Source of the DNA: a virus
Virus record (IMG/VR): IMGVR_UViG_3300045988_152778
Coordinates: 1 to 64,000 of that record
Strand: one strand, 5' to 3'
DNA: 64,000 nucleotides
This document shows, in pieces, positions 16,874 through 51,843 of the stretch (position 1 is the first letter of the stretch; the number at the start of each line of letters is the position of its first letter). A program made the position numbers and the translations under genes. The notes under the pieces were generated by a model. That model saw only the letters and a list, made by a program, of their open reading frames with translations, was not told the DNA's origin and ran no database searches.

Positions 16874-17140
16874 ATGATATTTAAAATAGGCGATAGAATT
16901 GTGTGCGGTGGTGAGGTTGACGGGCATTACAGCACCCGAGGCGAGCGCGGGGTGGTCATTGGTGATCCCAACAACGCCCTCATTCTTATACAGTTTGACA
17001 ACCTTATTCCGAACGCCCACGACGGCAACGGACGCGGTAGATACGGACATTGTTTGTGGGCAGACCCCAATATGCTTCAACTCGAAACGGCCGCGACCCC
17101 AATCATCCCCGCATCAGAACGCGAATATATTACACTTTGA
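16874..17140 (+). CDS. Hypothetical protein (88 aa)
   Basis: Same AAGGAGGAAAATGAA-ATG initiation motif. Confidence 0.45.
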   Translation: MIFKIGDRIVCGGEVDGHYSTRGERGVVIGDPNNALILIQFDNLIPNAHDGNGRGRYGHCLWADPNMLQLETAATPIIPASEREYITL

Positions 17141-17160
17141 AAATTAAGGAGGAAAATGAA

Positions 17161-18747
17161 ATGTGTTTCAAAAAGGAAAACGAAATCTTTAATGAAAACT
17201 ACCCGACGGACGCCGACGAGATAGAATATTACACCAATAAGGTAGAATACATCTTTCGAGAGATAGGTATAGATAATAGCTACACTCGTTACGGAATCGA
17301 GAGAAATGTCAAGGAGTGGTATAGCGCGAAGCAGCCTATATTCGAGATATTGCGGAAACACGAAAATTGGAATGAAGAAGCAAAAGCGGTTGTGTTTCTG
17401 CGCGACGAAGTTAGAAAGGCAAATGGAGGGGTTTTCAGACGAGATTTTATTGCGCTTCAGGATTATATAGCAAATGTGTTAGCGAAACACCAAGTTGTCG
17501 GAGATTACAGCGGACGTCGAGCACTTATATGTATACGGGACTCAGCCGATAAGGAAATCAGCGAGGACGAGGCTTGTGGAATAAATTCACTCGGGTATTA
17601 CAGAGAGATAAAAGCAGGAATGAAACGCAGTCGCGTTATAAATGCGATATACAAAGACTACCCCGTAAACGGTGACAAGAAAATCGATGCAACGAAGTTT
17701 GTTGATGAGCACGAAGAGGGGTCAAGAGATTATCAGAGCTATAACAAGCTGTTCGCGAAGGTAGCCGACGACACAAACCCGCTCAAAATAAAAAGGATTA
17801 CAGTTTTGAGTGCGAACATCTGCGACTACCTGCTGATGTCAAACGGAAATTCGTGGTCGAGTTGTCATTTCATAAACAGCAGCGGTGCGTATAACGGTTG
17901 CTATAAGGCTGGAACCCTGAGCTACTCTAACGACGGCACAAGTATGGTTTTCTATACGCTGTCGAGCGACTACAATGGAAATCAGTGGTTCTTTGAGCCG
18001 AAGATAACAAGACAGATGTTCTTCTATCAAAATGGAAATCTGCTACAGTCTCGTCTGTACCCGAAGGGTTGCGACGCGGAGGGCGAGGATTATAAAGACT
18101 ACCGCGCCGTGGTGCAGGATATAATATCGAATTGCCTCGGAGTGCCGAATCTGTGGAAGAAGCTTAACGGTGACGAGTGGCCCGATATCAATACATATGA
18201 TGACTCGTTCCACTACAAGGACTATGAAGAATTCCCGTTTGAGTGTGTTATGTCGTATAACAAGGAATTTAAAGATGAAATCAATGAAGGAATTGAAATC
18301 GGCGGCAGATCCTACTGCGTGGACTGCGGTGATGAGCGTTCTTATTACGGGGATGATGACTGTCGTGAGTTGCAGTGCAATTGTTGTGCAGCCTTTAATC
18401 GTTGTGAAAGATGCGGGTGTCATTACGACCAAGACGATATGCACGAAATAGACGGCGATTGGTACTGCGAGGATTGTTGCTTCTGGTGTGAAATTCACGA
18501 GGAGTGGGAGGTCAGATATAGCTACAGAGGTGAAGATTTTAAACAGGAAGTGGAAATAAACGGCGAGTGGTACACGATGTGTGAGGCAGCGTTTGATGAT
18601 GAAGTAGTTTATTGCGACAAGTGTGGAGATTATGAATGGAAAAACGAGGCTATGTATGTGGACGAGCTTGACGAGATTCTCTGCCGCGACTGCTACGAAG
18701 ATTTCATGAATAGAAAGGAAGAGGAAAACGAAGATGAAATTGCTTAA
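17161..18747 (+). CDS. Large hypothetical protein (528 aa) with C-terminal multi-CxxC (zinc-ribbon-like) region
   Basis: In-frame ATG after AAGGAGGAAAATGAA. C-terminal third holds at least six CxxC pairs (CVDCGDE, CNCCAAFNRCERCGC, CEDCCFWC, CDKCGD, CRDC). No known catalytic motif. Confidence 0.6.
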   Translation: MCFKKENEIFNENYPTDADEIEYYTNKVEYIFREIGIDNSYTRYGIERNVKEWYSAKQPIFEILRKHENWNEEAKAVVFLRDEVRKANGGVFRRDFIALQDYIANVLAKHQVVGDYSGRRALICIRDSADKEISEDEACGINSLGYYREIKAGMKRSRVINAIYKDYPVNGDKKIDATKFVDEHEEGSRDYQSYNKLFAKVADDTNPLKIKRITVLSANICDYLLMSNGNSWSSCHFINSSGAYNGCYKAGTLSYSNDGTSMVFYTLSSDYNGNQWFFEPKITRQMFFYQNGNLLQSRLYPKGCDAEGEDYKDYRAVVQDIISNCLGVPNLWKKLNGDEWPDINTYDDSFHYKDYEEFPFECVMSYNKEFKDEINEGIEIGGRSYCVDCGDERSYYGDDDCRELQCNCCAAFNRCERCGCHYDQDDMHEIDGDWYCEDCCFWCEIHEEWEVRYSYRGEDFKQEVEINGEWYTMCEAAFDDEVVYCDKCGDYEWKNEAMYVDELDEILCRDCYEDFMNRKEEENEDEIA

Positions 18748-25801: not shown

Positions 25802-26176
25802 ATGGGATTTTTGGGTTCATTTCTTGGTCTGATTGGTGCTTCGGCGGTGTTTGTTGGAGCCGATGTTAAAGAGCGTTGGGACGAAATAGATAGAGAGCGG
25901 CAGCGCATTGCGGCAAATCCCGCACCGCCTCCGGAGATGAGGGGAAATTTAAGAGATAAATATGAATCTGAATGGCACAGAGGCGATAACACTCACTTCC
26001 CGGAAGAATATCTTCCAGCTCTTGAGAGCGATCCAGAGGTACTTTACTGGTGGATTGAGCTTCTTGCAGAGCGTGAGATAAGGCGTCAGGGTTACCGCGG
26101 TTATCCTATCAGTATTCAGGGCAATTTCAATCGAGTGTATAATGCTTGGAAGGAGCGTCAGAATTGGGTCAGATAA
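25802..26176 (+). CDS. Small membrane protein (124 aa)
   Basis: ATG after GAAAGGAG-N10. N-terminal TM MGFLGSFLGLIGASAVFVGA. Confidence 0.5.
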   Translation: MGFLGSFLGLIGASAVFVGADVKERWDEIDRERQRIAANPAPPPEMRGNLRDKYESEWHRGDNTHFPEEYLPALESDPEVLYWWIELLAEREIRRQGYRGYPISIQGNFNRVYNAWKERQNWVR

Positions 26177-27117
26177 CCAGTGTTGATGTTAATAAAGACA
26201 TACTTATTGATAGTCTGAAAGCCCAGAACGCAAGACTAAAAAAGCTCCTCCGCGAAACAGCAGAAGAGCGAGATAGATATAAATCCTTGTGGGAAACAAA
26301 TCGGATTCAAAATGAATTTTCAGAAAAGGAGCGAAAAGCAAATCGGCGATTAGAACAAGAGAAAAAGCAAGAGCGGCTGTTGTCCGGTGTAAAATCGGAT
26401 GGCGTTCCGGTAGCTCATGCGGCGGATTCGATTCGTTCCTATGATGAAATGTGTGTTGTACTGGATAAGCTCAAAAACACAGGACGAATGGGAATACGAA
26501 ACTGGGCTATGTTCCGTTGCGGCATTTGCTTCGGTCTTAGAGCAAGCGACCTCGTTAAATTAAAATGGGGTTGGATCATGGACGACGACGGCGAGTTCAG
26601 AGACCGTATACCCGTAGTCGAGAGCAAGACATCTAAAATCAATCGGTGTTTCATATCCGATGCGATAAAGGAAACGCTTACAGAATATCGCAAGTGGCTC
26701 GGCGGACGCAACTGTTCTCCCGATGATTATATCTTCTCGAAGAACAACGGCGGGAGACTACAGGAGCAAAGCTATTCACGATATCTCAAAAGCGCGGGAA
26801 AGGAAGCGGGGTTGCCGATACACATCTCGTCTCACACCATGAGGAAATCATTTGCCAATATAGTGCTGTGTTGTCACGACGGCGGTGCGAATGATTATGC
26901 TATGAGAGACTTACAGGGTATGCTCGGACATTCAGATGTAAGAATTACGATGAGCTACCTCAAAGACACAATCCTCAGATACGACGAAGCGAGAAAGGCG
27001 GTGTCAGATTTCGTCCTCGGAAAGACAGATATAAACGAGCTGGTTACTTCAAAACAGGTCTCCAATAATGAAATTTACGAGCTTTGCAAAGAAATGTTTG
27101 AAAAACAAGTTGCGTAA
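26164..27117 (+). CDS. Second tyrosine recombinase (phage-integrase/Xer-like), TTG start (alternative TTG at 26146)
   Basis: RASDLVKLKW (Arg I box), HISSHTMRKSFA (H-x-x-R box II), LGHSDVRITMSYL (catalytic Tyr region). N-terminal coiled-coil. GGAAGGAG-N8-TTG. Confidence 0.8.
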   Translation: MGQITSVDVNKDILIDSLKAQNARLKKLLRETAEERDRYKSLWETNRIQNEFSEKERKANRRLEQEKKQERLLSGVKSDGVPVAHAADSIRSYDEMCVVLDKLKNTGRMGIRNWAMFRCGICFGLRASDLVKLKWGWIMDDDGEFRDRIPVVESKTSKINRCFISDAIKETLTEYRKWLGGRNCSPDDYIFSKNNGGRLQEQSYSRYLKSAGKEAGLPIHISSHTMRKSFANIVLCCHDGGANDYAMRDLQGMLGHSDVRITMSYLKDTILRYDEARKAVSDFVLGKTDINELVTSKQVSNNEIYELCKEMFEKQVA

Positions 27118-28702: not shown

Positions 28703-28925
28703 GCTTCTCACTCTAATAGCTCACGAGGTTGTGTCTCGGAAATGTGTAAACAACATAGAGTTTGTCGGCTATGTTGCTCGGTGCAGTCAGTGTGGCGAAC
28801 CAATAGCAATCTACTATAAACTCGACGACGAGCTGAGGGTTTCGATTTTGCCGAGATTCAAAAGATATAAGGAACAGATAGAAAACAAATTAAGGAAAGG
28901 AAATGATTTATCAAGTGGAAAATAA
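28689..28925 (+). CDS. Small protein with CxxC zinc-ribbon (78 aa)
   Basis: ...VSRKCVNN...ARCSQCGEPIAIYY... Confidence 0.4.
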   Translation: MRKSKLLTLIAHEVVSRKCVNNIEFVGYVARCSQCGEPIAIYYKLDDELRVSILPRFKRYKEQIENKLRKGNDLSSGK

Positions 28926-29706
28926 AATGACATTATTTACGAACGAAGAGCTTGGAAATGTTAGGGCTTTGGAGATCGACGGCGAGCCGTATTTCGTCGG
29001 CAAGGATGTCGCCGAGATACTCGGATATAGTAATCCGCGAAAAGCAATCGGCGACCACGTAGACGATGAAGATAAAACCGATGGGGTAACGATTCGTGAC
29101 TCCATCGGTAGGGAGCAAAAACCCATAATCATCAACGAGTCAGGTCTTTACAGCCTTATCCTCTCAAGCAAACTCCCGAAAGCCAAAGAGTTCAAGCGCT
29201 GGGTAACGGCGGAAGTGCTTCCAGCAATCCGCAAAACAGGCGGCTATGTAAACGATACGAAACAGTTCGTCGATTACTACTTTGCGGACTGCAATACATA
29301 TGGGCGAGAAGCTATTACGCTTATGCTCAACGAAACAAAACGAATGGCAAATCAGCTAAAGGCTCAGGCTCCGAAGGTGCTGTTTGCCGAAGCAGTAGAA
29401 GGCTCGAAGACATCTATTCCAGTCGGCGACCTTGCGAAGATTATAAAGCAGAACGGCGTCGATATTGAACAGAATCGTCTCTTCTCGTGGCTGAGAATGA
29501 ACGACTATCTGATAAAGTCGGGTGACAGACGAAATATGCCAACACAGAAATCTATGGATTTGGGGTTATTTGAGGTTAAGATATCAACCTATTATCGACC
29601 CGACGGCACGGTAGATATTACGAAGACTCCAAAGGTTACGGGCAAGGGTCAGACCTACCTTATTAATAAGTTTTTGTCAAGCGCGAGAGGAGTAGAGTCG
29701 GCATAA
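28903..29706 (+). CDS. Intact Bro-N/KilA-C phage antirepressor
   Basis: Bro-N: FTNEELGNVRALEIDGEPYFVGKDVAEILGYSNPRKAIGDHV...KRWVTAEVLPAIRKTGGY. KilA-C: ...KVLFAEAVEGSKTSIPVGDLAKIIKQNGVDIEQNRLFSWLRMNDYLIK...YYRPDGTVDITKTPKVTGKGQTYL. Paralog of the frameshifted copy at 7823..8588. Confidence 0.85.
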   Translation: MIYQVENKMTLFTNEELGNVRALEIDGEPYFVGKDVAEILGYSNPRKAIGDHVDDEDKTDGVTIRDSIGREQKPIIINESGLYSLILSSKLPKAKEFKRWVTAEVLPAIRKTGGYVNDTKQFVDYYFADCNTYGREAITLMLNETKRMANQLKAQAPKVLFAEAVEGSKTSIPVGDLAKIIKQNGVDIEQNRLFSWLRMNDYLIKSGDRRNMPTQKSMDLGLFEVKISTYYRPDGTVDITKTPKVTGKGQTYLINKFLSSARGVESA

Positions 29707-29774
29707 TTAAAATTCTTATAGGCGGTAGTCCTTGTACTAAGTGGAGTATCGCTCAGAAAAACGGAAGAGAAGTT

Positions 29775-30845
29775 TTGCCTGAAGGTGTCGGTTGGGAGCT
29801 GTTCGAGAACTATCGGATAGCGAAAGATAAATTCCAGCCCGACATCTTTTTATATGAGAATAACAAGTCGGCGGCTCAGTCGATAAAAGACGCGATTTAC
29901 TCTGCTCTTGGTGGGGGCAAAGACTCATCAGTCCGGCTTACGCATATAAATAGCGCGTTGGTTTCGGCACAACATCGTGAGAGGTTTTATGTTACGAATT
30001 TTGGCGACATAGAACAACCGAAAGACAGAGGAATTTTGTTACGCACTGTACTTGAGACTGACCGGGCTACCGACCAGTTTAATTATTATAGGCTTGAATC
30101 GGTTGTACCAATCAACACTACCGCCGGCGGCAAAGCAAGGACTGTTAAGGCTCAATATCATCATAGCTCTATGGCTAACTTTGTTACAAATGGAGGTTAT
30201 CCCGCAACTGCGGTTGCAATGCCGATACGCATAGGAACTATAGAGAGCAATGTAGAAAATAAGTCGCACGACAGCAAACAATATCGTGTATATAGTCCCG
30301 ACGGAAAAGCAACTACGCTTTGTGGACAAGGCGGCGGAGTCGGCGCAAAAACTGGATTGTATGCTGTTCCTGTTGGCGGTAAAGGAAAGGAACTCCCCGT
30401 TTATGAGGTTAGAGATGGGCTTATAACTATCAAGGACAAACAATACCCGATTGAGCTCGCCGATGGCTATTACCTTATACGAAAGCTTACACCGTTAGAA
30501 TGTGAAAGACTGCAAACTCTTCCGGACGGTTATACGAGCGGAGTTAGTGATACTCAGCGATATCGTGCTATCGGCAACGGGTGGACGGCAGAGGTTATTA
30601 TACATATCTTGAATCATGCTCTTAAAGACATCCCGAGAGACGAAGAGCTTGTAGTCTTGTCACTTTACGACGGTATAGCAACCGGTCGGTATTGCTTGGA
30701 TAAAATGGGCTTTACGAATGTCAAGTATTATGCTTATGAAATAGACCCTTATGCGCAAAAAATAGCGATGTCAAATTACCCGGATATCGTGTGGTGCGGA
30801 GATGCGTTTCGGGTTAGGGATGATGATTGGAAAATTCCAGACTAA
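29775..30845 (+). CDS. DNA (cytosine-5)-methyltransferase with circularly permuted motif order (IV-VI-VIII-TRD-IX-X-I-II-III); possibly rearranged or non-functional
   Basis: Reading frame opens at 29670 just after the antirepressor stop. The catalytic IGGSPCTKWSIAQK (motif IV, PC dipeptide) is at 29721..29760 with no ATG/GTG/TTG upstream. The first canonical start, TTG 29775, lies after the PC motif. Then LYENN (VI), QHRERFYV (VIII), RKLTPLECERLQTLPDGYT (IX), QRYRAIGNGWTAEVI (X). The same ORF ends with VVLSLYDGIATG (I), YAYEID (II), GDAFRV (III)...DDWKIPD-stop. Confidence 0.55.
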   Translation: MPEGVGWELFENYRIAKDKFQPDIFLYENNKSAAQSIKDAIYSALGGGKDSSVRLTHINSALVSAQHRERFYVTNFGDIEQPKDRGILLRTVLETDRATDQFNYYRLESVVPINTTAGGKARTVKAQYHHSSMANFVTNGGYPATAVAMPIRIGTIESNVENKSHDSKQYRVYSPDGKATTLCGQGGGVGAKTGLYAVPVGGKGKELPVYEVRDGLITIKDKQYPIELADGYYLIRKLTPLECERLQTLPDGYTSGVSDTQRYRAIGNGWTAEVIIHILNHALKDIPRDEELVVLSLYDGIATGRYCLDKMGFTNVKYYAYEIDPYAQKIAMSNYPDIVWCGDAFRVRDDDWKIPD

Positions 30846-30894
30846 AAGGAATCGGGTTTTGATTTGAAAAATGAAAATGAAAAGGGGAGATGAA

Positions 30895-31497
30895 ATGGCT
30901 CAGGATTGGAGCGGCGATGCAAACTCTGTGTACAAAATTATCGGGGCGTCTAACCACTCAAACGAAAACAGGGCAGACGACGACTACTACGCGACTGACC
31001 CGAAGGCAGTTGAAGAGCTGCTGAAAAGAGAGAAATTTTCTCACTATGTGTGGGAACCTTGTTGTGGTGGAGGACACATATCAAAAGTGTTGGAAGCTCA
31101 TGGCTACGACGTTCTGTCGAGTGACATTGTGGATAGGGGTTGTCCAAATACATATGTGGCGGACTTCTTAAGTGTTGCTCCCCCTGTTGAGTGTATATCA
31201 CGCGATATAATCACAAACCCGCCGTACAAACGTGCCAAGAAATTCATAGAGAAAGCTTTGGAGATATCTATGGATTCAACTAAGATAGCGATGTTCCTAA
31301 AAACTACTTTTCTCGAAAGCAAAGGACGAAGAGAGTTTTTTCGTGAGAATCCGCCAAAATATGTATATGTTTTTTCAGACAGAATGAAGTGTGCCCCAAA
31401 CGGCGATTTTAGCAAAATAAAGTCGAGCGCAATATCGTATGCGTGGTTTATTTGGGAAAAGGGGTTCAAGGGCGAACCGAAAATTAGATGGATATAA
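30895..31497 (+). CDS. N6-adenine (or N4-cytosine) DNA methyltransferase, small type
   Basis: VWEPCCGGGHIS (SAM-binding motif I) and IITNPPYK ((D/N)PPY catalytic motif IV). ATG after AAAGGGGAGATGAA. Confidence 0.75.
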   Translation: MAQDWSGDANSVYKIIGASNHSNENRADDDYYATDPKAVEELLKREKFSHYVWEPCCGGGHISKVLEAHGYDVLSSDIVDRGCPNTYVADFLSVAPPVECISRDIITNPPYKRAKKFIEKALEISMDSTKIAMFLKTTFLESKGRREFFRENPPKYVYVFSDRMKCAPNGDFSKIKSSAISYAWFIWEKGFKGEPKIRWI

Positions 31498-31515
31498 AAT
31501 CAGGGAGGAAATCAA

Positions 31516-32412
31516 ATGATATTTAATATTGTAATGATGGTTATAGCTGCGGTTCTTGCGGCTGTAGGTGTGATTTTAGCTTACAAAGAGATAGAATACG
31601 GAGACGACATTCCGGTGGCAATTCCTATAGTAAGTTTTGTGTTGGCGATATGTCTGTTTGTACTCTCAGCTTCAGCGGCTATTGTGCCGACCGGATATAC
31701 GGGAGTGAGAACGACGCTCGGTCAGATAAGCGACCAGCCTGTACATAGTGGTTTCAACTGGAAAGTGCCCATTGTTCAGAGCATAAAGCTCGTAAATAAC
31801 AAACAGCAGGACGCGCAGTTCGGCGGCGACAAAATCTGGTCGGAGACTGAAAGCAGAACAGCAATTTACTACGCAGACGTGACCGTTACTTATCAGATTA
31901 ACCCCGACAGGTCGGCGTGGATCTACGCTAATGTCTCGGATTACAAAAAATCTCTGGTGTCCGAAAACATAGTTGCTTCGGCTATTAAATCCAGTAGCAA
32001 AGTGCTTAGCGATACCGACGCGACGAACCGCTCGATAGTTGAGCCTCTGATAATGAAAAATCTTCAGGCTTCTATAGACGAGAAGTACGGCGAGGATGTT
32101 GTTGCGATACTCAAAGTGACGGTAAACGACATTGACTTTGACGAGTCATATCAGGCGGCGATAGCAGCAAAACAGCAGGCTCAGCTTGCGGCAGAACAGC
32201 AGGAAATCGAAAATAAAAAGGCTGTGGATAAGGCAAAGGCAGACGCAGAGGCGAAGCTTATAAAATCTAAGGCTGAAGCTGAAGCAAATGACACTCTTGA
32301 GAAGTCTCTGACGGATAAGATTCTTAAAGAAAAATACATAGAGAGGTGGGACGGAAAGCTCCCGAGTGTGATGACCGGCGACGATGGAAGTTCGATAATG
32401 ATTCAAAAGTAA
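31516..32412 (+). CDS. SPFH/Band-7 (stomatin/prohibitin/HflC-like) membrane protein
   Basis: Two N-terminal TM helices, then VPTGYTGVRTTLGQISDQPVHSGFNWKVPIVQSIKLVNNKQQD (SPFH core), then a long Ala/Glu/Lys coiled-coil. Confidence 0.7.
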   Translation: MIFNIVMMVIAAVLAAVGVILAYKEIEYGDDIPVAIPIVSFVLAICLFVLSASAAIVPTGYTGVRTTLGQISDQPVHSGFNWKVPIVQSIKLVNNKQQDAQFGGDKIWSETESRTAIYYADVTVTYQINPDRSAWIYANVSDYKKSLVSENIVASAIKSSSKVLSDTDATNRSIVEPLIMKNLQASIDEKYGEDVVAILKVTVNDIDFDESYQAAIAAKQQAQLAAEQQEIENKKAVDKAKADAEAKLIKSKAEAEANDTLEKSLTDKILKEKYIERWDGKLPSVMTGDDGSSIMIQK

Positions 32413-32423
32413 GGAGGGAATGA

Positions 32424-34658
32424 ATGAGGGTATTACTGTTGTTGCGCGGTAGTGCTGGGTGTGGTAAGTCAACATGGATTGAACAAAATGGACTTGAACC
32501 CTATACACTATCCGCCGACGAGATAAGGTTGATGTACGCTTCGCCCACTTTAAATGTTTGTGGTGAAGAGTGTATAAGTCAGTTAAATGACACTAAGGTC
32601 TGGAAGACACTCTTTCAGATTCTTGAGTCTCGAATGGAGCGAGGAGAGTTCACCGTTATTGACGCGACGAACTCCAAAACTTCCGAGATGAAGCGCTATG
32701 CGGAGCTTTGTAACCGTTATCGCTATAGGATTTATTGTGTAGACTTTACCGACATTCCTATTGAGGAAACCAAAAGGCGAAATAAAATGCGACCTATAGT
32801 TAAACAGGTTCCTGAAACGGCAATCGACAATATGTACGCTCGTTTCGCTACTCAGAAAATTCCGTCGGGGATAACCGTTATAAAACCGGATGAACTTTCA
32901 AGAGTGTGGTTCAAACCTATGGATGTTTCGAAATACGATGCGGTTCACTTTGTTGGAGATGTTCATGGCTGCTATACGGCACTCAAAGAAGCAATCGGGG
33001 ATGTAACTGAGAAACCTAATGAGCTGTTTGTGTTCTGCGGAGACTATACTGACAGAGGAGTTGAAAATGCAGAGGTAGTAAAGGAGCTTCTTCGCATCTA
33101 TAAAGAACCGAATGTATATCTCATAGAGGGAAATCATGAGAAACATATGTGGGTTTGGGCTAATGACGGAACTACCGGGTCAAAAGAGTTTGAGATGCAT
33201 ACAAGAGCTCAGCTTGAAAGCGCTTCTTTTACTAAAAAGGATGTTCGCAAACTTTACAGAAGTTTCGGGCAATGCGCCTATTATATATATCGTGGCAAAA
33301 CTATATTGGCTACACACGGTGGTCTTAGTACGCTGCCCAACAATCTCACGCTGGTAGCTACCGACCAAATGATTAAAGGCTCCGGGAATTATAGCGACGC
33401 CGATGTTGTTGATCAGTCTTTCTGTGAAAACACTGACGCTTATCAGGTGCATGGGCACAGAAATCTTAAAGGAAATCCCATTCAGGCTTGCAGAGCCTTC
33501 AATCTTGAGGGGAATGTTGAGTTTGGAGGCTCTATAAGAGTTGTTAGTTTTGTTGGCAATGAGATAAAGGTGAGCGAGTTTAAAAACAATATATATTTAC
33601 CGACTGAAGAGAGAATTGATTATACTGCAAAGATAAAAAAGAACGAGTCTGTTGCAGATGCTATTCTGGCTCTGAGAGGTAATAAGCAGGTAGTCGAGAA
33701 GCAGTTCGGTGATATCTCGTCTTTTAACTTCTCAAAACAGGCTTTCTTTGACAAGATATGGGATGAGCAGACGATTAGGGCACGAGGTTTGTATATCAAC
33801 ATTCCCAAAGGAAAAATAGTCGCAAGAGGCTATACAAAGTTCTTTAATGTAAACGAGCGACCGGAGACAAAATTTGATATGTTACAGCACAAGCTTAAGT
33901 TTCCTGTAACTGCGTATGTTAAAGAAAACGGGTTTCTCGGGTTAGTTTCATATAACGAGATAGATGATTCGCTGTTTGTTACAACGAAATCTAATCCGGA
34001 TGGTAATTATGCATCGTGGCTTAAAGAGATGATAGATAAGAAAATCCCTGTTGATACACAGCAGAAAATGAAAGAATTTTCAAGGGAGAACAATGTAACA
34101 TTTGTGTTTGAGTGTATTGATATGCAGAGAGATCCACACATAATTGATTATCCGGAAAATCATCTTTTCTTGCTTGATATTGTTTACAACGAGTTGAAGT
34201 TCAAAAAGTTCAGTTATGACGAGCTTATAAGTGTTGCAGACAAGTTCGGGCTCGAACACAAAGAGCGAGCTGTCGTAATTAACGATTGGCAGACATTCTT
34301 CGATTGGTATTACACAGTCACAGCACCTGATTATCTGTATAACAACAGGCATATAGAGGGATTTGTCGTCGAAGATGCCGACGGTTATATGGTTAAGCTT
34401 AAACTTGCTTACTATAATCTCTGGAAATACCTTCGCGGCGTTTCCTACAAGGTTCTTAGACGCGGACATCTTGATGGCAAGGAAACTTCGTCTCTTACAA
34501 CGTCATTAATGAATCAGTATTATGCGTGGCTTAAACGAATTTACGCAGAAACAGAGGATAAAGAGTCGATACCGCGTGATATCTGCTCGCTTAGAAAACT
34601 ATTCTACGCATCGGACGAAGGAAGAAATTTTACAAAGGAGGAAAGCAATAATGATTGA
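32424..34658 (+). CDS. Pnkp-like trifunctional RNA repair enzyme: P-loop polynucleotide kinase + calcineurin-type phosphoesterase + ATP-dependent ligase-like nucleotidyltransferase
   Basis: N-terminus LLLRGSAGCGKST (Walker A). Middle HFVGDVHGCY...FCGDYTDRG...IEGNHE...ATHGG...HGH (binuclear metallophosphoesterase set). C-terminal domain with a ligase motif-I-like AYVKENGFLG (K-x-N-G). Same domain order as the Clostridium thermocellum Pnkp RNA-repair protein (from memory). Confidence 0.6.
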   Translation: MRVLLLLRGSAGCGKSTWIEQNGLEPYTLSADEIRLMYASPTLNVCGEECISQLNDTKVWKTLFQILESRMERGEFTVIDATNSKTSEMKRYAELCNRYRYRIYCVDFTDIPIEETKRRNKMRPIVKQVPETAIDNMYARFATQKIPSGITVIKPDELSRVWFKPMDVSKYDAVHFVGDVHGCYTALKEAIGDVTEKPNELFVFCGDYTDRGVENAEVVKELLRIYKEPNVYLIEGNHEKHMWVWANDGTTGSKEFEMHTRAQLESASFTKKDVRKLYRSFGQCAYYIYRGKTILATHGGLSTLPNNLTLVATDQMIKGSGNYSDADVVDQSFCENTDAYQVHGHRNLKGNPIQACRAFNLEGNVEFGGSIRVVSFVGNEIKVSEFKNNIYLPTEERIDYTAKIKKNESVADAILALRGNKQVVEKQFGDISSFNFSKQAFFDKIWDEQTIRARGLYINIPKGKIVARGYTKFFNVNERPETKFDMLQHKLKFPVTAYVKENGFLGLVSYNEIDDSLFVTTKSNPDGNYASWLKEMIDKKIPVDTQQKMKEFSRENNVTFVFECIDMQRDPHIIDYPENHLFLLDIVYNELKFKKFSYDELISVADKFGLEHKERAVVINDWQTFFDWYYTVTAPDYLYNNRHIEGFVVEDADGYMVKLKLAYYNLWKYLRGVSYKVLRRGHLDGKETSSLTTSLMNQYYAWLKRIYAETEDKESIPRDICSLRKLFYASDEGRNFTKEESNND

Positions 34659-34755
34659 CGCATTTCTTTTTAACATTCTTAATCTGATTGGTCTTTATGG
34701 TAAAGCAATTCTTGTGTTCATCGAGAAAATACTTGGACTGTAAGGTGGTGAAACT

Positions 34756-35748
34756 ATGCAGGGCAAAAACATTAAAGTACACCTTAAAAGAAAAATAGGT
34801 GATTGGGTGTCGAGTGTTGATGACGAAGCCATAAAAGATGCTATTAGCGACAATGCTATTATAACTGGCGGTGCGATTGTGTCACTTCTTCAAGACGAGA
34901 AACCGCATGATTATGACGTATATTTCAGAAACGAAAAAGCGTTAATACAGGTGGCGGAATATTATGTCAAAAAATATACTGAATTTGTCAAGGATAAACT
35001 TGATGATAAAGGCGTAAAACCTACTGTACAGAGGTGCTATTGGAACAAATCGTCAGAGAGATGGACTGTATTAAAAGAAAACGATAAGAAACGAGACGAT
35101 GAGAGGGTGCGTGTTTTCGTTCGTAGTGTCGGAGCAGTTGGCGTTGACTATATTCCTCACGAGGAAACTGATGCCCAATATCGCAGAGCGATGGCGTTAA
35201 TAGGCAACGAGTTGAAGAAGAGCACTAAAATTTCGGTTGACGACTTACCGCCATACAGTCCGATATTTATTACAAATAATGCTATTACACTAAAAAATGG
35301 AGTTCAGATTGTACTTAGATTTTACGGAGAACCCGAAGAGATACATAAGAACTATGATTTCGTCCATTGTACTTCATATTGGACGAGCTGGAATAACGCA
35401 TTAGTTATGCCGCCGAGAGCTCTTGAGGCTATTATTAACAAAGAACTCTATTACATCGGTAGTAAATATCCGCTTTGCTCGGTAATTCGTGCGCGAAAGT
35501 TTTTAAAGCGCGGATGGAATATAAATGCAGGACAATATGTCAAAATGATACTACAGCTTAACGCTCTCGATCTTACTAATCTTCATGTTTTTGAAGAACA
35601 GCTTATCGGGGTTGATAGCGCGTATTTTGGCGCTGTTATTAATAAGGTAAACACACTACGAGAGGAAGGACAAAAGGTTGATGAGACTTATCTAATAAAC
35701 CTCATTAACGAAGTGTTTGATGAAGGCGTTGAGGAGAATTACGGTTAA
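34756..35748 (+). CDS. Pol-beta-superfamily nucleotidyltransferase (330 aa)
   Basis: ITGGAIVSLLQDEKPHDYDVYF fits hG[GS]-x(9-13)-D-x-D. Immediately downstream of the Pnkp-like gene. Confidence 0.45.
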   Translation: MQGKNIKVHLKRKIGDWVSSVDDEAIKDAISDNAIITGGAIVSLLQDEKPHDYDVYFRNEKALIQVAEYYVKKYTEFVKDKLDDKGVKPTVQRCYWNKSSERWTVLKENDKKRDDERVRVFVRSVGAVGVDYIPHEETDAQYRRAMALIGNELKKSTKISVDDLPPYSPIFITNNAITLKNGVQIVLRFYGEPEEIHKNYDFVHCTSYWTSWNNALVMPPRALEAIINKELYYIGSKYPLCSVIRARKFLKRGWNINAGQYVKMILQLNALDLTNLHVFEEQLIGVDSAYFGAVINKVNTLREEGQKVDETYLINLINEVFDEGVEENYG

Positions 35749-35793
35749 AATCCGAAATGGTTTTAATAATAAAAATGAAAAGGAGTAAAACAA

Positions 35794-36735
35794 ATGGGAT
35801 TTCAGAAAGCAAAAAGAGAACAGATTTGGCTTAAGGTGCTACTCGCGGGTCCAAGTGGAAGCGGTAAGACTTTTTCGGCGCTGAGACTGGCGAAGGGCAT
35901 AGCCGCCGCTGCGGGTGGTAGAGTTGCCGCAATCGACACGGAGAATGGTCGTATAAGATATTACGCAAATGAGTTCGACTTCGACGACCTTCAGCTTCAG
36001 GCTCCGTATACTCCCGAGAAATACATTCAGGCTATTGAGGATGCGGTTGACGGCGGATATAAGGCTCTTGTTATCGACAGCATAACTCATGAGTGGGATT
36101 ACTGTGTTGATTATCACGACAAGATGCCGGGCAATTCTTATACCAACTGGGGTAAGGTAACTCCGAGACATGACGCCTTTATGGAAAAGGTTCTTCAGTC
36201 TCCTATACATATTATATCCACCGTTAGAGGCAAGGACACTTATGTTCTTGAGGATAGAAACGGAAAACAGGTTCCTAAGAAAGTCGGTATGGGCTACAAG
36301 CAGAGAGATAACACGGAGTACAACTACACTCTAACCTTTAATATCGCGCAGGACACCCACATAGCGGAAGCTCAGAAAGATAATACACACCTCTTCGAGG
36401 GCAGATACGATGTGCTGACCGAGCGCGACGGCAAGGCTCTGTTTGACTGGGCAAACGCTGGCGACGCCCCCGCTCCGAAGCCGGTTAATAAATCCACCGC
36501 AGAGGAAGAGCCGGTTGCAGATGTTCCTGTGGCTGAGAAGTCTAAGATAGAAATGGCTATAGACAGCATTAACAAAATCGCTAAAGAACTTGCAGACCGT
36601 GGTGTGGCGAAGAAAATAATTTCAGATATAATCAAGTCGGTTTCGGGCAGTGCAAACTATAATAAGATAACTGACCTTGAGGTAGCGACAGATGTTTATA
36701 AGGAGCTTGTAGCCCTTAAAAATAAGGAGGATTAA
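35794..36735 (+). CDS. Sak4-like (AAA_24) phage recombination/ssDNA-annealing ATPase
   Basis: KVLLAGPSGSGKTFSAL Walker A, ALVIDSITHEW Walker B/sensor. Typical position ahead of SSB. Confidence 0.7.
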   Translation: MGFQKAKREQIWLKVLLAGPSGSGKTFSALRLAKGIAAAAGGRVAAIDTENGRIRYYANEFDFDDLQLQAPYTPEKYIQAIEDAVDGGYKALVIDSITHEWDYCVDYHDKMPGNSYTNWGKVTPRHDAFMEKVLQSPIHIISTVRGKDTYVLEDRNGKQVPKKVGMGYKQRDNTEYNYTLTFNIAQDTHIAEAQKDNTHLFEGRYDVLTERDGKALFDWANAGDAPAPKPVNKSTAEEEPVADVPVAEKSKIEMAIDSINKIAKELADRGVAKKIISDIIKSVSGSANYNKITDLEVATDVYKELVALKNKED

Positions 36736-36741
36736 TTATTT

Positions 36742-37158
36742 ATGGTAGAGAATAATGTAACAATCATCGGTAGACTTACGGGCGACGTAGAAATAAGAAC
36801 CGCCGGTAACACAGACAACAGAGTGGCGAATTTCACTGTAGCTGTTAATCGTCCCAAAAGAAAGGACGCAGAAGACGAAGCAGATTTCATCCGTGTCAGG
36901 GCGTGGAACTCAACCGCCGATTTTATCGAAAAGTATTTCGGCAAGGGTTCCAAGATAGGTGTCAGAGGTTCCATTCGTACAGACTCGTATAAAAACAAGG
37001 ACGGCGAGAACAGAAGCGTGACATATGTCCTTGCTGATGAGGTCTGCTTTATCGAGTCTAAGTCAACTTCCAACGGCAGTTCTGAACCGAAAGCAAAGGC
37101 GAGCACAAAGAAAGCAAATGTTGATGTCACTGCTGACGATGACGATCTGCCGTTCTGA
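36742..37158 (+). CDS. ssb: Single-stranded DNA-binding protein
   Basis: OB-fold start MVENNVTIIGRLTGDVEIRTAGN...ANFTVAVNR and the acidic C-terminal tail DDDDLPF characteristic of bacterial/phage SSB. Confidence 0.85.
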   Translation: MVENNVTIIGRLTGDVEIRTAGNTDNRVANFTVAVNRPKRKDAEDEADFIRVRAWNSTADFIEKYFGKGSKIGVRGSIRTDSYKNKDGENRSVTYVLADEVCFIESKSTSNGSSEPKAKASTKKANVDVTADDDDLPF

Positions 37159-37166: not shown

Positions 37167-37919
37167 ATGGAAAAATACAGCTTTTCTAAGTTGTCTTCTT
37201 TCCATCAGTGTCCGTTGCAATATTGGTATACATATATAGCTCGTGAGCAGGGAGAAAATAATGCTTTCGCACAGTACGGAAGTTTCGTTCACTCCCTGCT
37301 CGAACGCTGGGGCAAAGATGAACTTGCCGAGTATGAGTTGCTGGGTGAATATGAAGATAAGTTCTTCGACCGCGTAACTCAGGAATTTCCACCCAACAAA
37401 TACACCGACTTGAGTAAGAAATATTACGACGACGGCGTACAGTTTTTGTCAAACTTCGAGGGCGTGGATGCGAAAGAGATACTCGGTGTAGAAGAACACT
37501 TCGAGGAGCCAATTGCGGCGGCGGACGGAAGAGACAGCTTCATCATTCAGGGCTTTATAGACCTTATATACATAGACTCGGCGGGACGGTTGGTAGTTCA
37601 CGACTGGAAATCAAAAGCAAAATTTAAAAACCCCGCCGAGCAGAAGAAGTATGCGAGACAGTTATACATATATTCAATTTATGTCAAGCTGAGATATGGT
37701 AAGTTCCCCGATCTACTGAGATTCCATATGTTCCGTAACAGCAAAGATGTAGATATCAAGTTCAACATTGACGACTATTACGAAGCAATAAACTGGATGC
37801 AGGAGACGGTAAAGGAAATCCGGGATTGCGGTGAGTTTGAAAGCCGACCGGATGATTTTTATTGCCAATATCTGTGCGACATGAGACTAAAATGCTGTGG
37901 GGAGACGGCAACGAAGTAG
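37167..37919 (+). CDS. PD-(D/E)XK nuclease, Cas4/RecB-like exonuclease with Fe-S Cys cluster
   Basis: N-terminus YSFSKLSSFHQCPLQYWYTY (Cas4/RecB-type). Core DLIY...HDWKSK (D...E-x-K). C-terminal CQYLCDMRLKCCGE cysteines. Confidence 0.65.
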   Translation: MEKYSFSKLSSFHQCPLQYWYTYIAREQGENNAFAQYGSFVHSLLERWGKDELAEYELLGEYEDKFFDRVTQEFPPNKYTDLSKKYYDDGVQFLSNFEGVDAKEILGVEEHFEEPIAAADGRDSFIIQGFIDLIYIDSAGRLVVHDWKSKAKFKNPAEQKKYARQLYIYSIYVKLRYGKFPDLLRFHMFRNSKDVDIKFNIDDYYEAINWMQETVKEIRDCGEFESRPDDFYCQYLCDMRLKCCGETATK

Positions 37920-49914: not shown

Positions 49915-51843
49915 ATGAAGTTCAATATAGATAGTCTCGATAGAAGTTTTGTAATTGAATATAATCGTCTGCAAAATGCTTACCCAGAGAGGCTGGGCGA
50001 GCTCAATGGTTTTGGAGATAAACAGCTCAACTATACCGATTTCATCGACAATTTTGTTGATAAGCAAACCATAGCAGACGCGAGTATAGATGGCAACGCG
50101 AATGTTGCACACAAGGATATTGTTTCGCTCATAAACGAAATGTCGAAGCCCCATTCAAAACTTTTGGCGTTCAACAAGATATTTCATGAGCTGACTAAGA
50201 AGTATGGACACGAGGATGCCACTGAGTGGCTGAAGGGCGAGTGGGACGGACACTTTTATCTGCACGACGCTCATAGCTCGTCTTGGGTTCCGTATTGCTT
50301 CGCTTATGATATAGACGAACTGGTGAAGCGCGGACTCTATTTCATAGATAACTTTAATGCGGCTCCGCCTCAGCACCTCAATACATATACTGATTTTGTC
50401 AGCGAATTTGTGTCGTGGACGTGCAATAGGTCTTCAGGCGCGGTTGGGCTTCCGAGTTTTCTCGTCTATTCGTATTACTTCTGGAAGAAAGATTGCGACG
50501 AGGGTTACTTTGTAAAGTCTCCTGAATATTACAGAGATCAGTCTTTTCAGGAGATAATATATCGACTTAATCAGCCCTATCTGAGGGGCGGAATCCAGTC
50601 GGCTTTTACCAACTTCTCAATATTTGATAAGCCATATCTTGAAGCGCTCTTCGGCGGTAAAGAGTTCCCCGACGGCACATTCATTATAGATTATATCGAC
50701 GAGATTAAAGAATATCAGAAGGCGTTTATGAAAGTGCTTTCAGATACAAGAAGAGAGAACCTTATGACATTTCCGGTTGTTTCGTTCGCTCTTCTCAGAC
50801 AGAACGGTAAGTTCGTAGATGAGGATTTTGCAAAGTGGTGTTGCCGTCATAACATGAAGTGGGCGGATAGTAACATTTTCGTATCAGAGGATGTTACAAG
50901 CTTGAGTAACTGCTGTCGCCTGAAAAGCAACATAAAGGAGCTTGGTTACTTCAATAGTATCGGCGGGTCGGCGCTTGAGGTTGGATCTATTAAGGTAAAC
51001 ACAATAAACCTTGCCCGTCTTGCCTACGAGACAACATCAAAGGAAGAGTATCTTGAAGCTCTTAAGGGTCGAGTAATTACCTGTGCAAAAACTCTTGATG
51101 TTATTAGAGATATTATGAAGCGAAACACAGAAAAGGGGCTGCTTCCCAACTACGCGCTCGGTATTATTAACATGAAGTCACAGTACAACACCGTTGGCAT
51201 CATTGGTGTGTACGAAGCGTTGCAGAAGTTTGGCTACACTTACCACGACGAGTTCGGCAATACATACTATAAAGACGAGGGCGTAGAGTTTGCCAAGAAG
51301 ATACTCGCGACAATCACCGAGATTAAAGACGAGTTCGTCAAGGACAAGGACTACATGATGAACATCGAACAGGTTCCCGGAGAGAGAGCTGCGGCTGTTC
51401 TTATGGAAAAAGACAAGCTATTCTTTCCCGATGAGAAATACGACCTTCCTCTGTACGGCAACCAGTGGATTCCGCTCGGCATAAAGACAACCATAGCTGA
51501 AAAGGTTAGAGTGAGTGCTATCCTTGACAAGGCTTGTTCAGGCGGCAGTATAGTCCATATTAACATCAGTTCTCCATTCAACAGTTTCGATGAAGCTTGG
51601 TATATGATGAATTATGTTGCGGACGCGGGTGTTAACTACTTTGCTTTTAATCTTCGCATATCGGCTTGTGACAACAATCATGGATTCTTTGGAGATACTT
51701 GTCCCGAGTGTGGACACCCCGTTGAGACGACATATCAGCGTATAGTCGGTTTCCTTACGCCTACTAAGACCTACTCTGAGGCTCGTAAGAAAGAGTTTGC
51801 TATGCGTGACTGGTTTGACCTTAACAATATAGGAGAACTTTAA
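49915..51843 (+). CDS. nrdD: Anaerobic ribonucleoside-triphosphate reductase (class III RNR large subunit)
   Basis: 642 aa. C-terminal zinc ribbon CDNNHGFFGDTCPECGH and glycyl-radical-type motif YQRIVGFLTP (R-x-x-G-[YF]). Followed by an NrdG-like gene. Confidence 0.75.
   Translation: MKFNIDSLDRSFVIEYNRLQNAYPERLGELNGFGDKQLNYTDFIDNFVDKQTIADASIDGNANVAHKDIVSLINEMSKPHSKLLAFNKIFHELTKKYGHEDATEWLKGEWDGHFYLHDAHSSSWVPYCFAYDIDELVKRGLYFIDNFNAAPPQHLNTYTDFVSEFVSWTCNRSSGAVGLPSFLVYSYYFWKKDCDEGYFVKSPEYYRDQSFQEIIYRLNQPYLRGGIQSAFTNFSIFDKPYLEALFGGKEFPDGTFIIDYIDEIKEYQKAFMKVLSDTRRENLMTFPVVSFALLRQNGKFVDEDFAKWCCRHNMKWADSNIFVSEDVTSLSNCCRLKSNIKELGYFNSIGGSALEVGSIKVNTINLARLAYETTSKEEYLEALKGRVITCAKTLDVIRDIMKRNTEKGLLPNYALGIINMKSQYNTVGIIGVYEALQKFGYTYHDEFGNTYYKDEGVEFAKKILATITEIKDEFVKDKDYMMNIEQVPGERAAAVLMEKDKLFFPDEKYDLPLYGNQWIPLGIKTTIAEKVRVSAILDKACSGGSIVHINISSPFNSFDEAWYMMNYVADAGVNYFAFNLRISACDNNHGFFGDTCPECGHPVETTYQRIVGFLTPTKTYSEARKKEFAMRDWFDLNNIGEL

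Follow-up and report, generated by a model that had tools for sequence, protein, structure and literature searches.

Within a 64,000-nt stretch of virus DNA (positions 1 to 64,000 of the IMG/VR record IMGVR_UViG_3300045988_152778; hereafter the window), a protein with kinase, phosphatase and ligase domains is encoded close to a Pol-beta-type nucleotidyltransferase, and the locus raises the question of whether these genes form one tRNA-repair system. The first-pass annotation had named an N6-adenine methyltransferase, an SPFH protein, a 744-aa kinase-phosphatase-ligase and a nucleotidyltransferase, and all four genes are present as described. Its interpretation is supported in part: a predicted RNA-repair enzyme stands, while the two-gene tRNA-repair module and the role given to the SPFH protein do not. 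The best explanation, with a probability of about 0.7 as a whole, is that a temperate phage of roughly 90 kb, integrated at a tRNA-Asn gene of an anaerobic gut bacterium, carries here a mosaic accessory slot in its early operon, filled with separate single-gene cassettes, mostly for counter-defence, rather than one system. What is directly observed comprises the genes present, the identity of their domains, their intact catalytic motifs and their families, as well as the independent presence or absence of genes and their recurrent neighbours. The annotated features are, in window coordinates:

29703..30845, + strand, C5-cytosine DNA methyltransferase with permuted motifs (Pfam DNA_methylase 7e-14, profile positions 95-320)
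30871..31497, + strand, small amino-methyltransferase (PHROG 799 'DNA methyltransferase' 1e-69; NPPY and EPCCGGG motifs)
31516..32412, + strand, membrane-anchored SPFH/band-7 protein (Pfam Band_7 1e-19; PHROG 200 3e-41; hydrophobic N-terminus)
32424..34658, + strand, KPL (kinase, phosphatase, ligase), predicted trifunctional RNA heal-and-seal enzyme of 744 aa (PHROG 8238 'RNA ligase' 1e-220 over the full length; three Pfam domains)
32433..32849, + strand, KPL kinase domain, P-loop polynucleotide 5'-kinase, residues 4-142 (AAA_33 1e-18)
32946..33458, + strand, KPL phosphatase domain, binuclear metallophosphoesterase, residues 175-345 (Metallophos 1e-16)
33765..34634, + strand, KPL ligase domain, Rnl1/Trl1-type ATP-dependent RNA ligase with a helical C-terminal module, residues 448-737 (RNA_lig_T4_1 2.5e-44)
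34651..34743, + strand, hydrophobic small ORF of 30 aa (MIDAFLFNILNLIGLYGKAILVFIEKILGL), retained in 31/31 close-relative matches with mostly conservative changes
34756..35748, + strand, NT330, Gad2-family Pol-beta nucleotidyltransferase of 330 aa
35794..37919, + strand, recombination module just downstream of NT330 (Pfam and PHROG matches)
35794-36735, + strand, Sak4-like AAA_24 ATPase (Pfam/PHROG)
36742-37158, + strand, SSB (Pfam/PHROG)
37167-37919, + strand, PD-(D/E)XK exonuclease (Pfam/PHROG)

Signs of a prophage are found in an integrase that adjoins tRNA-Asn; an anaerobic ribonucleotide reductase is also encoded. KPL homologues cluster in genomes of Lachnospiraceae and other Clostridia, and the host is probably clostridial. 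The accessory slot lies between an antirepressor gene on one side and the recombination/replication module on the other, and the C5-cytosine methyltransferase gene forms its upstream boundary. In comparisons of close relatives, its mosaicism is seen in methyltransferase alleles, a TnpB insertion and an exchanged annealing-protein module.

The composition of the 744-aa protein as a kinase, a binuclear metallophosphoesterase and a ligase-like domain is borne out by Pfam matches, profile searches, fold comparison and invariant motifs. No catalytic residue varies among 37 sequences, those of Twort, SPbeta-like and Alicyclobacillus phages included. The residues concerned are G14, K15, S16, D32, R35, R119 and R123 in the kinase; GDxHG, GDxxDRG, GNH, H298 and HGH343-345, that is all five metal and phosphate motifs, in the phosphatase; and K500, N502, G503, E563, E645, G646, K658 and K660 in the ligase, whose nucleotidyltransferase motifs are I (K500-E-N-G503), IV (E645-G646) and V (K658-L-K660). 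An AF2 model was obtained with a pLDDT of 78.7. The kinase matches the Clostridium thermocellum Pnk structures 4gp7, 4jst and 4jt2 by profile (3e-10) and by fold (TM 0.70-0.75, 25% identity), and the phosphatase matches lambda phosphatase 1g5b (profile 5e-12, fold TM 0.67-0.71). The ligase belongs to Pfam PF09511 (RNA_lig_T4_1), scoring 152 bits (cut-off 28.3) with profile positions 2-227 of 227 covered. Structure prediction also places a nucleotidyltransferase fold in the C-terminal domain, for which Foldseek ranks Trl1-LIG (E 1e-15, TM 0.68) above T4 Rnl1 (5e-12, TM 0.50) and Rnl3. The architecture is already catalogued as PHROG 8238 and is very common, with more than 3000 metagenomic proteins, 113 phages deposited in GenBank (Twort and SPbeta-like phages among them) and many Lachnospiraceae prophages. 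A literature search found no biochemical study of the family.

The order of N-terminal P-loop 5'-kinase, central binuclear metallophosphoesterase and C-terminal ligase is shared with bacterial Pnkp, the architecture to which the protein had been assigned at first. The likeness is confined to the two healing domains, of which the kinase has its nearest solved structure in C. thermocellum Pnkp (TM 0.75). Only kinase and phosphatase match the Pnkp model TIGR04075 (62 bits, the cut-off being 750), with KPL residues 4-301 aligned to profile positions 10-323 of 851, and the assignment as a bacterial Pnkp was rejected. The KPL ligase lies outside the Pnkp-specific ligase family. Unlike Pnkp, whose sealing requires the methyltransferase/activator Hen1 (a ligase activator and 2'-O-methyltransferase; PMC3675462), KPL is a phage protein that stands by itself: no Hen1-type match was found among the eight flanking proteins with Pfam, PHROG and TIGRFAM-type profiles, and its neighbours are the SPFH protein, the 30-aa ORF and the Gad2-like transferase. 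The kinase and metallophosphoesterase of C. thermocellum Pnkp heal tRNA ends, which T4 Rnl1 then seals, and an H189D exchange in its GDxHG motif leads to a 2'-PO4 product (PMC1920235). The phosphatase motifs are conserved in KPL, including this histidine that sets the 2'-OH product chemistry (PMC1920235). Since its counterpart H181 is retained, the expected healing product of KPL is a 2'-OH,3'-OH end.

In predicted chemistry and logic, that of a phage undoing the damage done by a host anticodon nuclease, KPL resembles T4 Pnkp together with Rnl1 (gp63). These two T4 enzymes reverse tRNA cleavage by PrrC. The KPL ligase shares PF09511 with T4 Rnl1, matches PHROG 562 (5e-30) and finds the T4 Rnl1 structure with an E value of 5e-12. 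Differences are that KPL is one polypeptide where T4 uses two proteins, that its 3'-phosphatase is a metallophosphoesterase and not a DxDxT acylphosphatase, and that its C-terminal module is Trl1-like and not the tRNA-specificity domain of Rnl1. As a T4 RnlA equivalog (TIGR02308) the ligase was rejected, as it scores 28 bits where 242 are required.

The nearest solved relative of the KPL ligase is fungal/plant Trl1 (9qw7, 6n0v, 6n67, 8rbj; TM 0.68). Residues 448-737 align by profile to the fungal enzymes (9qw7 3e-25; 6n0v and 6n67 about 1e-17), and this alignment extends through the C-terminal module. Like Trl1, KPL is a predicted trifunctional heal-and-seal enzyme, but the domain order is opposite, Trl1 being arranged as ligase, kinase and cyclic phosphodiesterase. 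Trl1 heals 3' ends with a 2H phosphodiesterase that leaves the 2'-PO4 needed by its ligase, whereas the KPL phosphatase is predicted to leave a 2'-OH. The end chemistry of KPL is thus uncertain, because Trl1 ligases need a junction 2'-PO4 that the predicted phosphatase chemistry would remove. Whether the junction carries a 2'-OH or a 2'-PO4 bears on the origin of eukaryotic Trl1.

From domain identities, motifs and gene context we infer every biochemical activity and in vivo target at the locus. The P-loop kinase of KPL would phosphorylate 5'-OH ends, 2',3'-cyclic phosphates or 3'-phosphates would be taken off by the lambda-phosphatase-like metallophosphoesterase, and the Rnl1/Trl1-type ligase, by way of a Lys500-AMP intermediate, would join the 3'-OH to the 5'-phosphate. 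KPL would probably serve to undo the cleavage of tRNA or other RNA by host ribotoxin-type defences, and the KPL family may be the chief single-protein tRNA-repair device in Firmicutes phages.

The 330-aa protein is a GG...DxD nucleotidyltransferase as first described, judging from its invariant motif and its fold. It carries the Pol-beta active-site motif hGGx(9-13)DxD; G38, G39, D52 and D54 do not vary among 52 sequences and are aligned to GGAITSLFNNKEINDVD in Gad2. A precomputed match to PF26128 'Gad2' is present in all 120 best homologues, one of them 99% identical, and also in the 77%-identical gene of the relative L109, where the match bears the name 'Gad2'; NT330 itself has no PF26128 match in a direct Pfam search, and the assignment rests on the precomputed annotation of its homologues. 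In a direct comparison with SPbetaL7 Gad2, BLASTP aligns residues 24-82 to 16-85 (36% identity, E 1e-7) and, in a second colinear segment, residues 185-286 to 90-192 (E 5e-8); hhalign gives a probability of 97.3%. NT330 shares with Gad2 the motif in its hGGx(12)DxD form, the head/neck region that follows it and a phage- or prophage-borne position in a variable accessory locus. Compared with Gad2 (400 aa), it carries about 95 additional residues (roughly 85-180) as an insertion, and the last 200 or so residues of Gad2 have no counterpart in it; only Gad2 residues 16-193 align, and identity over the two segments is only about 18-36%. Because of the low identity, the insertion and the missing C-terminal part, anti-Gabija activity may not be retained.

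The fold of NT330 most resembles the head and neck of class II CCA-adding enzymes and of poly(A) polymerases. The part that can be superposed on CCA-type enzymes (344-517 aa) amounts to only about 175 residues; in contrast to these enzymes, NT330 lacks the tRNA-binding body and tail domains, and the remaining helices at its C-terminus (residues 288-322) are short, with lower model confidence. The base-templating EDxxR motif of CCA enzymes is presumably replaced (SKYPLCSVIR). No Pfam match to PolyA_pol (PF01743) was found even at E values up to 10, and no PDB sequence match was obtained with either the single sequence or a profile. Some GenBank depositors have labelled homologues 'tRNA nucleotidyltransferase' or 'pcnB'; the proper annotation is 'Gad2-family nucleotidyltransferase'. 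The first-pass concept of a Pol-beta transferase adjoining an RNA ligase is that of RlaP, which extends damaged RNA by 1-2 nucleotides ahead of sealing (PMC12776372; PMC7824862). NT330 has no Pfam match to RlaP (PF10127) and, unlike RlaP, does not follow RNA ligase genes from genome to genome, the linkage being confined to one lineage.

A dedicated tRNA-repair module, in which KPL would reseal tRNA and a CCA-adding-like NT330 would rebuild 3' ends or fill in lost nucleotides before ligation, could draw on the depositors' labels, on the nearest solved folds, on the precedents of RlaP cooperating with RNA ligases (PMC12776372) and of CCA-adding enzymes in jumbo phages (PMC7824862), and on gene order: the two genes are adjacent and co-oriented here and in L109 (67-77% identity). 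It is nevertheless distinctly unlikely, since each gene comes and goes independently in near-identical phages. Of 24 distinct contigs whose genes share 93-100% identity, both genes occur in 8, KPL only in 14 and NT330 only in 2, with gene-precise junctions that delimit two cassettes:

32418..34634, no strand, KPL presence/absence cassette (in L012 and L019 homology ends at 32417 and restarts at 34635)
34744..35764, no strand, NT330 presence/absence cassette (in 10 close relatives homology ends at 34743 and restarts at about 35765)

In L012 and L019, the SPFH stop codon and a ribosome-binding site are followed directly by the 30-aa ORF, and in the 10 relatives without NT330 this ORF lies directly 5' of the Sak4-like gene. 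The ORF overlaps the KPL stop codon, is present with or without KPL and with or without NT330, and in L109 has a protein identity of 75%, against 67-77% for the flanking proteins; it is part of the backbone, outside both cassettes. The two families also fail to co-occur at a distance, with a KPL homologue near NT330 homologues in 0/70 distant loci and an NT330 homologue near KPL homologues in 0/142 (62 viral and 80 bacterial). Further points against the module are the lack of PF01743 and PF10127 matches, the superposition limited to head and neck, the recombination genes as recurrent neighbours of NT330, and anti-Gabija activity as the sole tested function of its family. For the same reason of family membership, and in view of the missing body and tail, an anti-Gabija role is better founded for NT330 than the rebuilding of tRNA 3'/CCA ends. 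Given the adjacency here and in L109, some lineage-specific cooperation may exist.

In view of the neighbouring recombination genes, DNA was also considered as the substrate of either protein. For KPL, a role as a DNA-end repair enzyme for nicked or broken phage DNA, serving that module rather than RNA, is highly improbable. Its gene lies about 1.1 kb 5' of the recombination genes, and polynucleotide kinase-phosphatases such as T4 Pnkp work on DNA as well as RNA; yet its sealing domain falls by sequence and fold in the Rnl1/Trl1 RNA-ligase clade and not with DNA ligases, Sak4 and SSB occur near its homologues in only 1/62 distant viral and 0/80 bacterial loci, and genes for Thg1-like tRNA 5'-end repair lie within six genes of them in 13/67 loci. 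For NT330, recombination neighbours are recurrent: SSB, an SMC-like ATPase, DUF1351, RecT/Sak4 or an exonuclease is found within six genes in 65/78 viral loci, often directly adjacent and across 8 of 17 lineages (defined at 70% identity), and Sulfitobacter phage NYA-2014a has the same arrangement around its homologue. NT330 could thus be mainly part of the recombination/replication module, perhaps working as a terminal transferase at the 3' ends of DNA or on recombination intermediates, with any anti-defence effect a by-product and the subfamily perhaps not a Gabija inhibitor at all. Gabija itself reportedly acts at the ends of phage DNA and keeps watch on RecBCD (PMC12904381), which makes DNA-end chemistry a plausible arena. 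This reading is unlikely: at least 10 near-identical phages keep Sak4, SSB and exonuclease without NT330, which is therefore not a core component, and homologues are located elsewhere in large Bacillus and Lysinibacillus phages. In SPbeta-like phages gad2 lies in a dedicated anti-Gabija locus, its knockout renders SPbetaL7 sensitive to Gabija, and a Brevibacillus Gad2 homologue blocks Gabija (bioRxiv 10.1101/2023.05.01.538930). Most likely, NT330 would neutralise a Gabija-like, DNA-end-sensing defence enzymatically. Its subfamily offers a minimal and abundant version of Gad2, a CCA-enzyme-like head and neck encoded among recombination genes, for a substrate search.

Both proteins come from known families, and the locus is ordinary phage biology. 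A joint reading, which we consider very doubtful, is that CCA-fold Gad2-family transferases defeat Toprim nucleases of the Gabija/OLD type through the 3' end of a nucleic acid (tRNA or phage DNA) and not by binding the nuclease, that here NT330 and KPL would be complementary arms of one RNA-damage response, and that the KPL ligase would represent the viral lineage behind the eukaryotic tRNA ligase domain. A tRNA connection is kept open by P2-OLD, a GajA relative that cuts tRNA anticodon stems (PMC12445682).

The genes upstream of KPL vary as well. The SPFH protein had been taken as a pointer to an anti-restriction locus, but no evidence links it to defence. Its gene is immediately 5' of the KPL homologue in L110, gives way to a TnpB insertion in both L097 and L098, and is within range of KPL homologues in only 9/147 distant loci. 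The small amino-methyltransferase, with two allelic forms among relatives (about 84% and 98% identity), is by its motifs probably an N6-adenine DNA methyltransferase, for which the Pfam Dam match is weak (0.0078). Together with the C5-cytosine enzyme it may serve the self-methylation of phage DNA against restriction. In relatives with flanking genes of 97-100% identity, the C5-cytosine methyltransferase gene is either missing or 65-96% identical. The motifs of its product run in the order IV, VI, VIII, X, I and II/III; its last 64 aa find their match in the motif I region at the N-terminus of PHROG 363, and the catalytic GGSPCTKWS motif lies 5' of the first canonical start codon.

The four genes that the first-pass annotation grouped at this locus (an N6A methyltransferase, an SPFH protein, a Pnkp-like protein and a nucleotidyltransferase) are real open reading frames, co-oriented and closely packed on the plus strand, and all motifs quoted for them are found in the translations. 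They are flanked upstream by an antirepressor gene and on the other side by a recombination and replication block (Sak4-like AAA_24 ATPase, SSB, PD-(D/E)XK exonuclease, primase-helicase and PolIII alpha subunit). Tail genes are also encoded in the window.

Features of the locus and its prophage setting
93-168, tRNA-Asn(GTT)
253-1407, minus strand, tyrosine integrase, directly after tRNA-Asn
26146-27117, plus strand, second Phage_integrase-family gene, within the early region
28903-29706, antirepressor (Bro-N/ANT)
30871-31497, plus strand, methyltransferase-like protein of 208 aa (the earlier start at 30895 is an internal Met)
31516-32412, plus strand, SPFH/band-7 protein of 298 aa (Pfam Band_7, 1e-19)
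32424-34658, plus strand, kinase, phosphatase and ligase protein of 744 aa (KPL)
34651-34743, hydrophobic small ORF of 30 aa
34756-35748, plus strand, Pol-beta nucleotidyltransferase of 330 aa (NT330)
49915-51843, anaerobic ribonucleotide reductase

A tRNA gene beside an integrase is a classic boundary of an integrated prophage, and the order of tRNA-Asn and tyrosine integrase thus marks the start of the window as the left end of such a prophage. IMG/VR contigs with genes 93-100% identical to those of the window reach 95 kb. Megablast against 50,697 phage records gave no match to the region, and relatives are seen at the protein level only. In bacterial genomes, KPL homologues are found overwhelmingly in Lachnospiraceae and other Clostridia, including Acetatifactor, Coprococcus, Hungatella and Flintibacter, from which we infer that the host is likely a gut clostridial bacterium (Clostridia/Lachnospiraceae). 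The assignment is indirect because the species-representative genomes gave no close prophage relative of the phage (best KPL match 61%). Between 26 and 39 kb, predicted promoters and terminators were no more numerous than in shuffled sequence.

The proposed kinase, phosphatase and ligase make-up of KPL was confirmed by three Pfam domains, namely AAA_33 (residues 4-142, 1e-18), Metallophos (residues 175-345, 1e-16) and RNA_lig_T4_1 (residues 453-664, 2.5e-44, profile covered whole). PHROG 8238 ('RNA ligase') matches the protein over its full length (1e-220). The same architecture is found at 38-44% identity in 113 GenBank phage records, including SPbeta-like Bacillus phages, the Staphylococcus phages Twort and Sep1-like and one Alicyclobacillus phage, where the homologues are variously labeled RNA ligase, polynucleotide kinase, phosphatase or hypothetical, and over 3000 metagenomic proteins share it as well. 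When these distant phages are included in the alignment, all catalytic residues are invariant: the P-loop G14-K15-S16, D32 and R35 in the kinase; G178-D179-x-H181, G206-D207-x-x-D210-R211-G212, G236-N237-H238, H298 and H343-G-H345 in the phosphoesterase; and K500-x-N502-G503, E563, E645-G646 and K658-x-K660 in the ligase.

Profile searches against PDB sequences aligned KPL residues 448-737 to fungal Trl1 ligase domains (9qw7, 3e-25; 6n0v and 6n67, ~1e-17), the kinase to that of C. thermocellum Pnkp (CthPnkp; 4gp7, 3e-10) and the phosphatase to lambda phosphatase (1g5b, 5e-12). The AlphaFold model (pLDDT 78.7) agrees with these matches by fold. For the ligase, Trl1-LIG (E 1e-15, TM 0.68) ranks ahead of T4 Rnl1 (5e-12, TM 0.50) and Rnl3, and the other two domains match CthPnk (TM 0.75) and lambda phosphatase (TM 0.71). 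In KPL, Pnkp-like healing domains, arranged as in Pnkp, are joined to a Trl1-like sealing domain.

The earlier identification of KPL as a bacterial Pnkp is rejected. It scores 62 bits against TIGR04075 (cut-off 750), aligning with the kinase and phosphatase portion only; the ligase is of another family, and the Hen1 partner is absent. No Hen1 gene is found at the KPL locus; Pnkp sealing depends on Hen1 (PMC3675462). Status as a T4 RnlA equivalog was likewise ruled out (28 bits vs 242), and KPL is assignable to the broad Rnl1/Trl1 ligase family only. It is predicted to work like T4 Pnkp together with Rnl1, like bacterial Pnkp and like eukaryotic Trl1. The kinase and metallophosphoesterase of CthPnkp heal tRNA ends that are then sealed by T4 Rnl1, and the His of its GDxHG motif, which KPL retains as H181, determines whether a 2'-OH or a 2'-PO4 end is formed (PMC1920235). 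A 2'-PO4 might be required by the Trl1-like ligase of KPL, and the predicted phosphatase would take this group away. In the literature searched, no biochemical study of Pnkp-like healing combined with Trl1-like sealing turned up. The architecture itself is already known, with an entry in PHROGs and annotations in many phage records. It is probably also listed in the 2016 RNA-repair survey of Burroughs and Aravind. As a general idea, cooperation of phage RNA ligases with kinases, calcineurin-like phosphoesterases and Pol-beta transferases has been published (PMC7824862).

For NT330, local searches of Pfam, NCBIfam and PDB sequences gave no usable match, and its PHROG (4400) is a group without assigned function. 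It was identified from its precomputed Pfam label, from comparing it directly with Gad2 of Bacillus phage SPbetaL7 and from a fold search. The precomputed domain PF26128, named 'Gad2' in the locus table, is present on every homologue among the matches listed (4487 homologues in total); a literature search on 'PF26128' found nothing. Gad2 is a Gabija anti-defence protein of 400 aa and a predicted nucleotidyltransferase; its deletion renders SPbetaL7 Gabija-sensitive, and Gabija is also blocked by a homologue from Brevibacillus (bioRxiv 10.1101/2023.05.01.538930). As of February 2026, how Gad2 works was still given as unknown (PMC12904381). BLASTP aligned NT330 24-82 with Gad2 16-85 (36% identity, E 1e-7), including IITGGAIVSLLQDEKPHDYDVYF vs IIAGGAITSLFNNKEINDVDIYF, and, colinear with this segment, NT330 185-286 with Gad2 90-192 (E 5e-8). 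A probability of 97% was obtained with hhalign. In comparison to SPbetaL7 Gad2, NT330 has an insertion of ~95 residues and lacks the C-terminal half. As judged from these alignments, NT330 is a short Gad2-family member, and this short subfamily may fail to inhibit Gabija. Membership in RlaP was ruled out by the absence of a PF10127 match and of linkage to ligases.

KPL and NT330 had been proposed to act together as a two-gene tRNA-repair module. This was not borne out, as each gene is present or absent independently in close relatives and the two do not co-occur at a distance. The close relatives comprise 24 distinct IMG/VR contigs with genes 93-100% identical to the window, eight of which carry both genes, 14 KPL only and two NT330 only. 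The junctions are gene-precise, with homology gaps between 32417 and 34635 in contigs without KPL and between 34743 and ~35765 in contigs without NT330. No KPL homologue was found within 8 kb of NT330 homologues of 41-53% identity (0/70 viral loci), and no NT330 homologue near KPL homologues of 50-62% identity (0/62 viral and 0/80 bacterial loci). The sole other adjacency is in L109, a related phage (67-77% identity). Recurrent neighbors of NT330 are instead recombination genes, i.e. SSB, an SMC/AAA_23-type ATPase, DUF1351, RecT or Sak4, and exonucleases (65/78 loci; 8/17 lineages after dereplication at 70% identity), and its homologue in Sulfitobacter phage NYA-2014a likewise lies among recombination genes. 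It is regarded as improbable that Gad2-type enzymes target 3' ends, of tRNA or otherwise, and so complement KPL here; what keeps this reading in play is that GajA has a relative in P2, its OLD-family nuclease, which cleaves tRNA anticodon stems (PMC12445682).

The genomic neighborhood of KPL homologues is variable and includes Dam-type methyltransferases, MazF toxins and Thg1-like tRNA 5'-end repair enzymes. Clustering of the neighbors revealed no conserved partner, with no cluster in more than 14 of the 67 loci. Thg1-like genes (tRNA-His guanylyltransferase family, 3'-5' polymerase) are located at most six genes from KPL in 13/67 loci, not dereplicated, namely at 13146-13967 of L110, a 119-kb contig, and in 12 further loci among L112-L173. 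This association favors an RNA role of KPL over a DNA role. L110 additionally encodes an ATP-dependent DNA ligase, a Macro-domain protein and an NAD synthase near its KPL homologue, and the region in this and similar ~120-kb phages is reminiscent of a larger region for RNA repair and NAD counter-defence. PemK/MazF-type endoribonuclease toxin genes are found near KPL homologues in the related phage L109 (427-738) and in nine loci among L112-L173.

SPFH and KPL were considered as a conserved pair, for which the linkage is too weak: an SPFH homologue is in range in 7/67 viral and 2/80 bacterial loci, and directly beside KPL in L110 only. In this contig, otherwise unrelated to the window, an SPFH/Band_7 gene (5731-6687, 61% identical) lies directly upstream of the KPL homologue (7001-9226, 61% identical); more distant SPFH genes are located ~2 kb upstream of KPL in four other loci (L114, L136, L139 and L140). 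A weak SPFH-ligase association (9/147 loci) is possible.

The stretch from the antirepressor to the recombination genes is highly mosaic among close relatives, the pattern expected of an accessory-cassette hot spot. The C5 methyltransferase either has 65-96% identity or is missing, and the small amino-methyltransferase exists as two alleles. A TnpB (IS605 OrfB) gene precedes the SPFH gene in some contigs and takes its place in others.

TnpB genes (367 aa) in close-relative contigs
L009 3501-4604, also L092, L094, L095 and L102: inserted between the small methyltransferase and SPFH genes
L097 3803-4906, also L098: SPFH gene replaced

The domains of this TnpB are HTH_OrfB_IS605, OrfB_IS605 and Cas12f1-like TNB, and its distribution suggests that an IS605-type element is active in this phage population. 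In two relatives (L087, 10361-11511, and L094), NT330 and the Sak4-like ATPase are swapped for Siphovirus Gp157 and a 221-aa annealing protein. The latter has no Pfam match; its last ~70 residues and the C-terminus of the window's Sak4-like protein are almost identical. It looks like the annealing-protein module was exchanged and the common tail kept; this tail is possibly a binder of SSB or the replisome. The label 'counter-defence style island' is reasonable, but for a different reason than proposed: methyltransferases, an RNA-repair enzyme and a Gad2-family gene lie side by side, each independently exchangeable.

The 30-aa ORF MIDAFLFNILNLIGLYGKAILVFIEKILGL, which shares an ATGA-type overlap with the KPL stop codon, is retained in all close relatives, whichever flanking cassette is present. 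It is 75% identical in L109, where the neighboring proteins are 67-77% identical, and is probably a real single-helix membrane peptide.

The C5-cytosine methyltransferase (29670-30845) appears circularly permuted, with the motif order IV, VI (ENN), VIII (QHRER), X (GNG), followed C-terminally by I (LSLYDGIATG) and II/III. The first ATG/GTG/TTG comes only after its catalytic GGSPCTKWS motif, so that a product with the catalytic Cys would require initiation at ATA (29703) or ATT (29706). These candidate starts are located 10-13 nt past a GAGAGGAG ribosome-binding site and overlap the antirepressor gene stop.

Three further large ORFs, none with an assigned function, are located near the prophage end, a region that in prophages often houses defence or moron genes.

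ORFs near the prophage end
12914-14053, plus strand, 379-aa protein, no PHROG match
17050-18747, plus strand, 565-aa protein, no PHROG match
3859-6540, minus strand, 893-aa protein, PHROG 8308 (unknown function) as sole match
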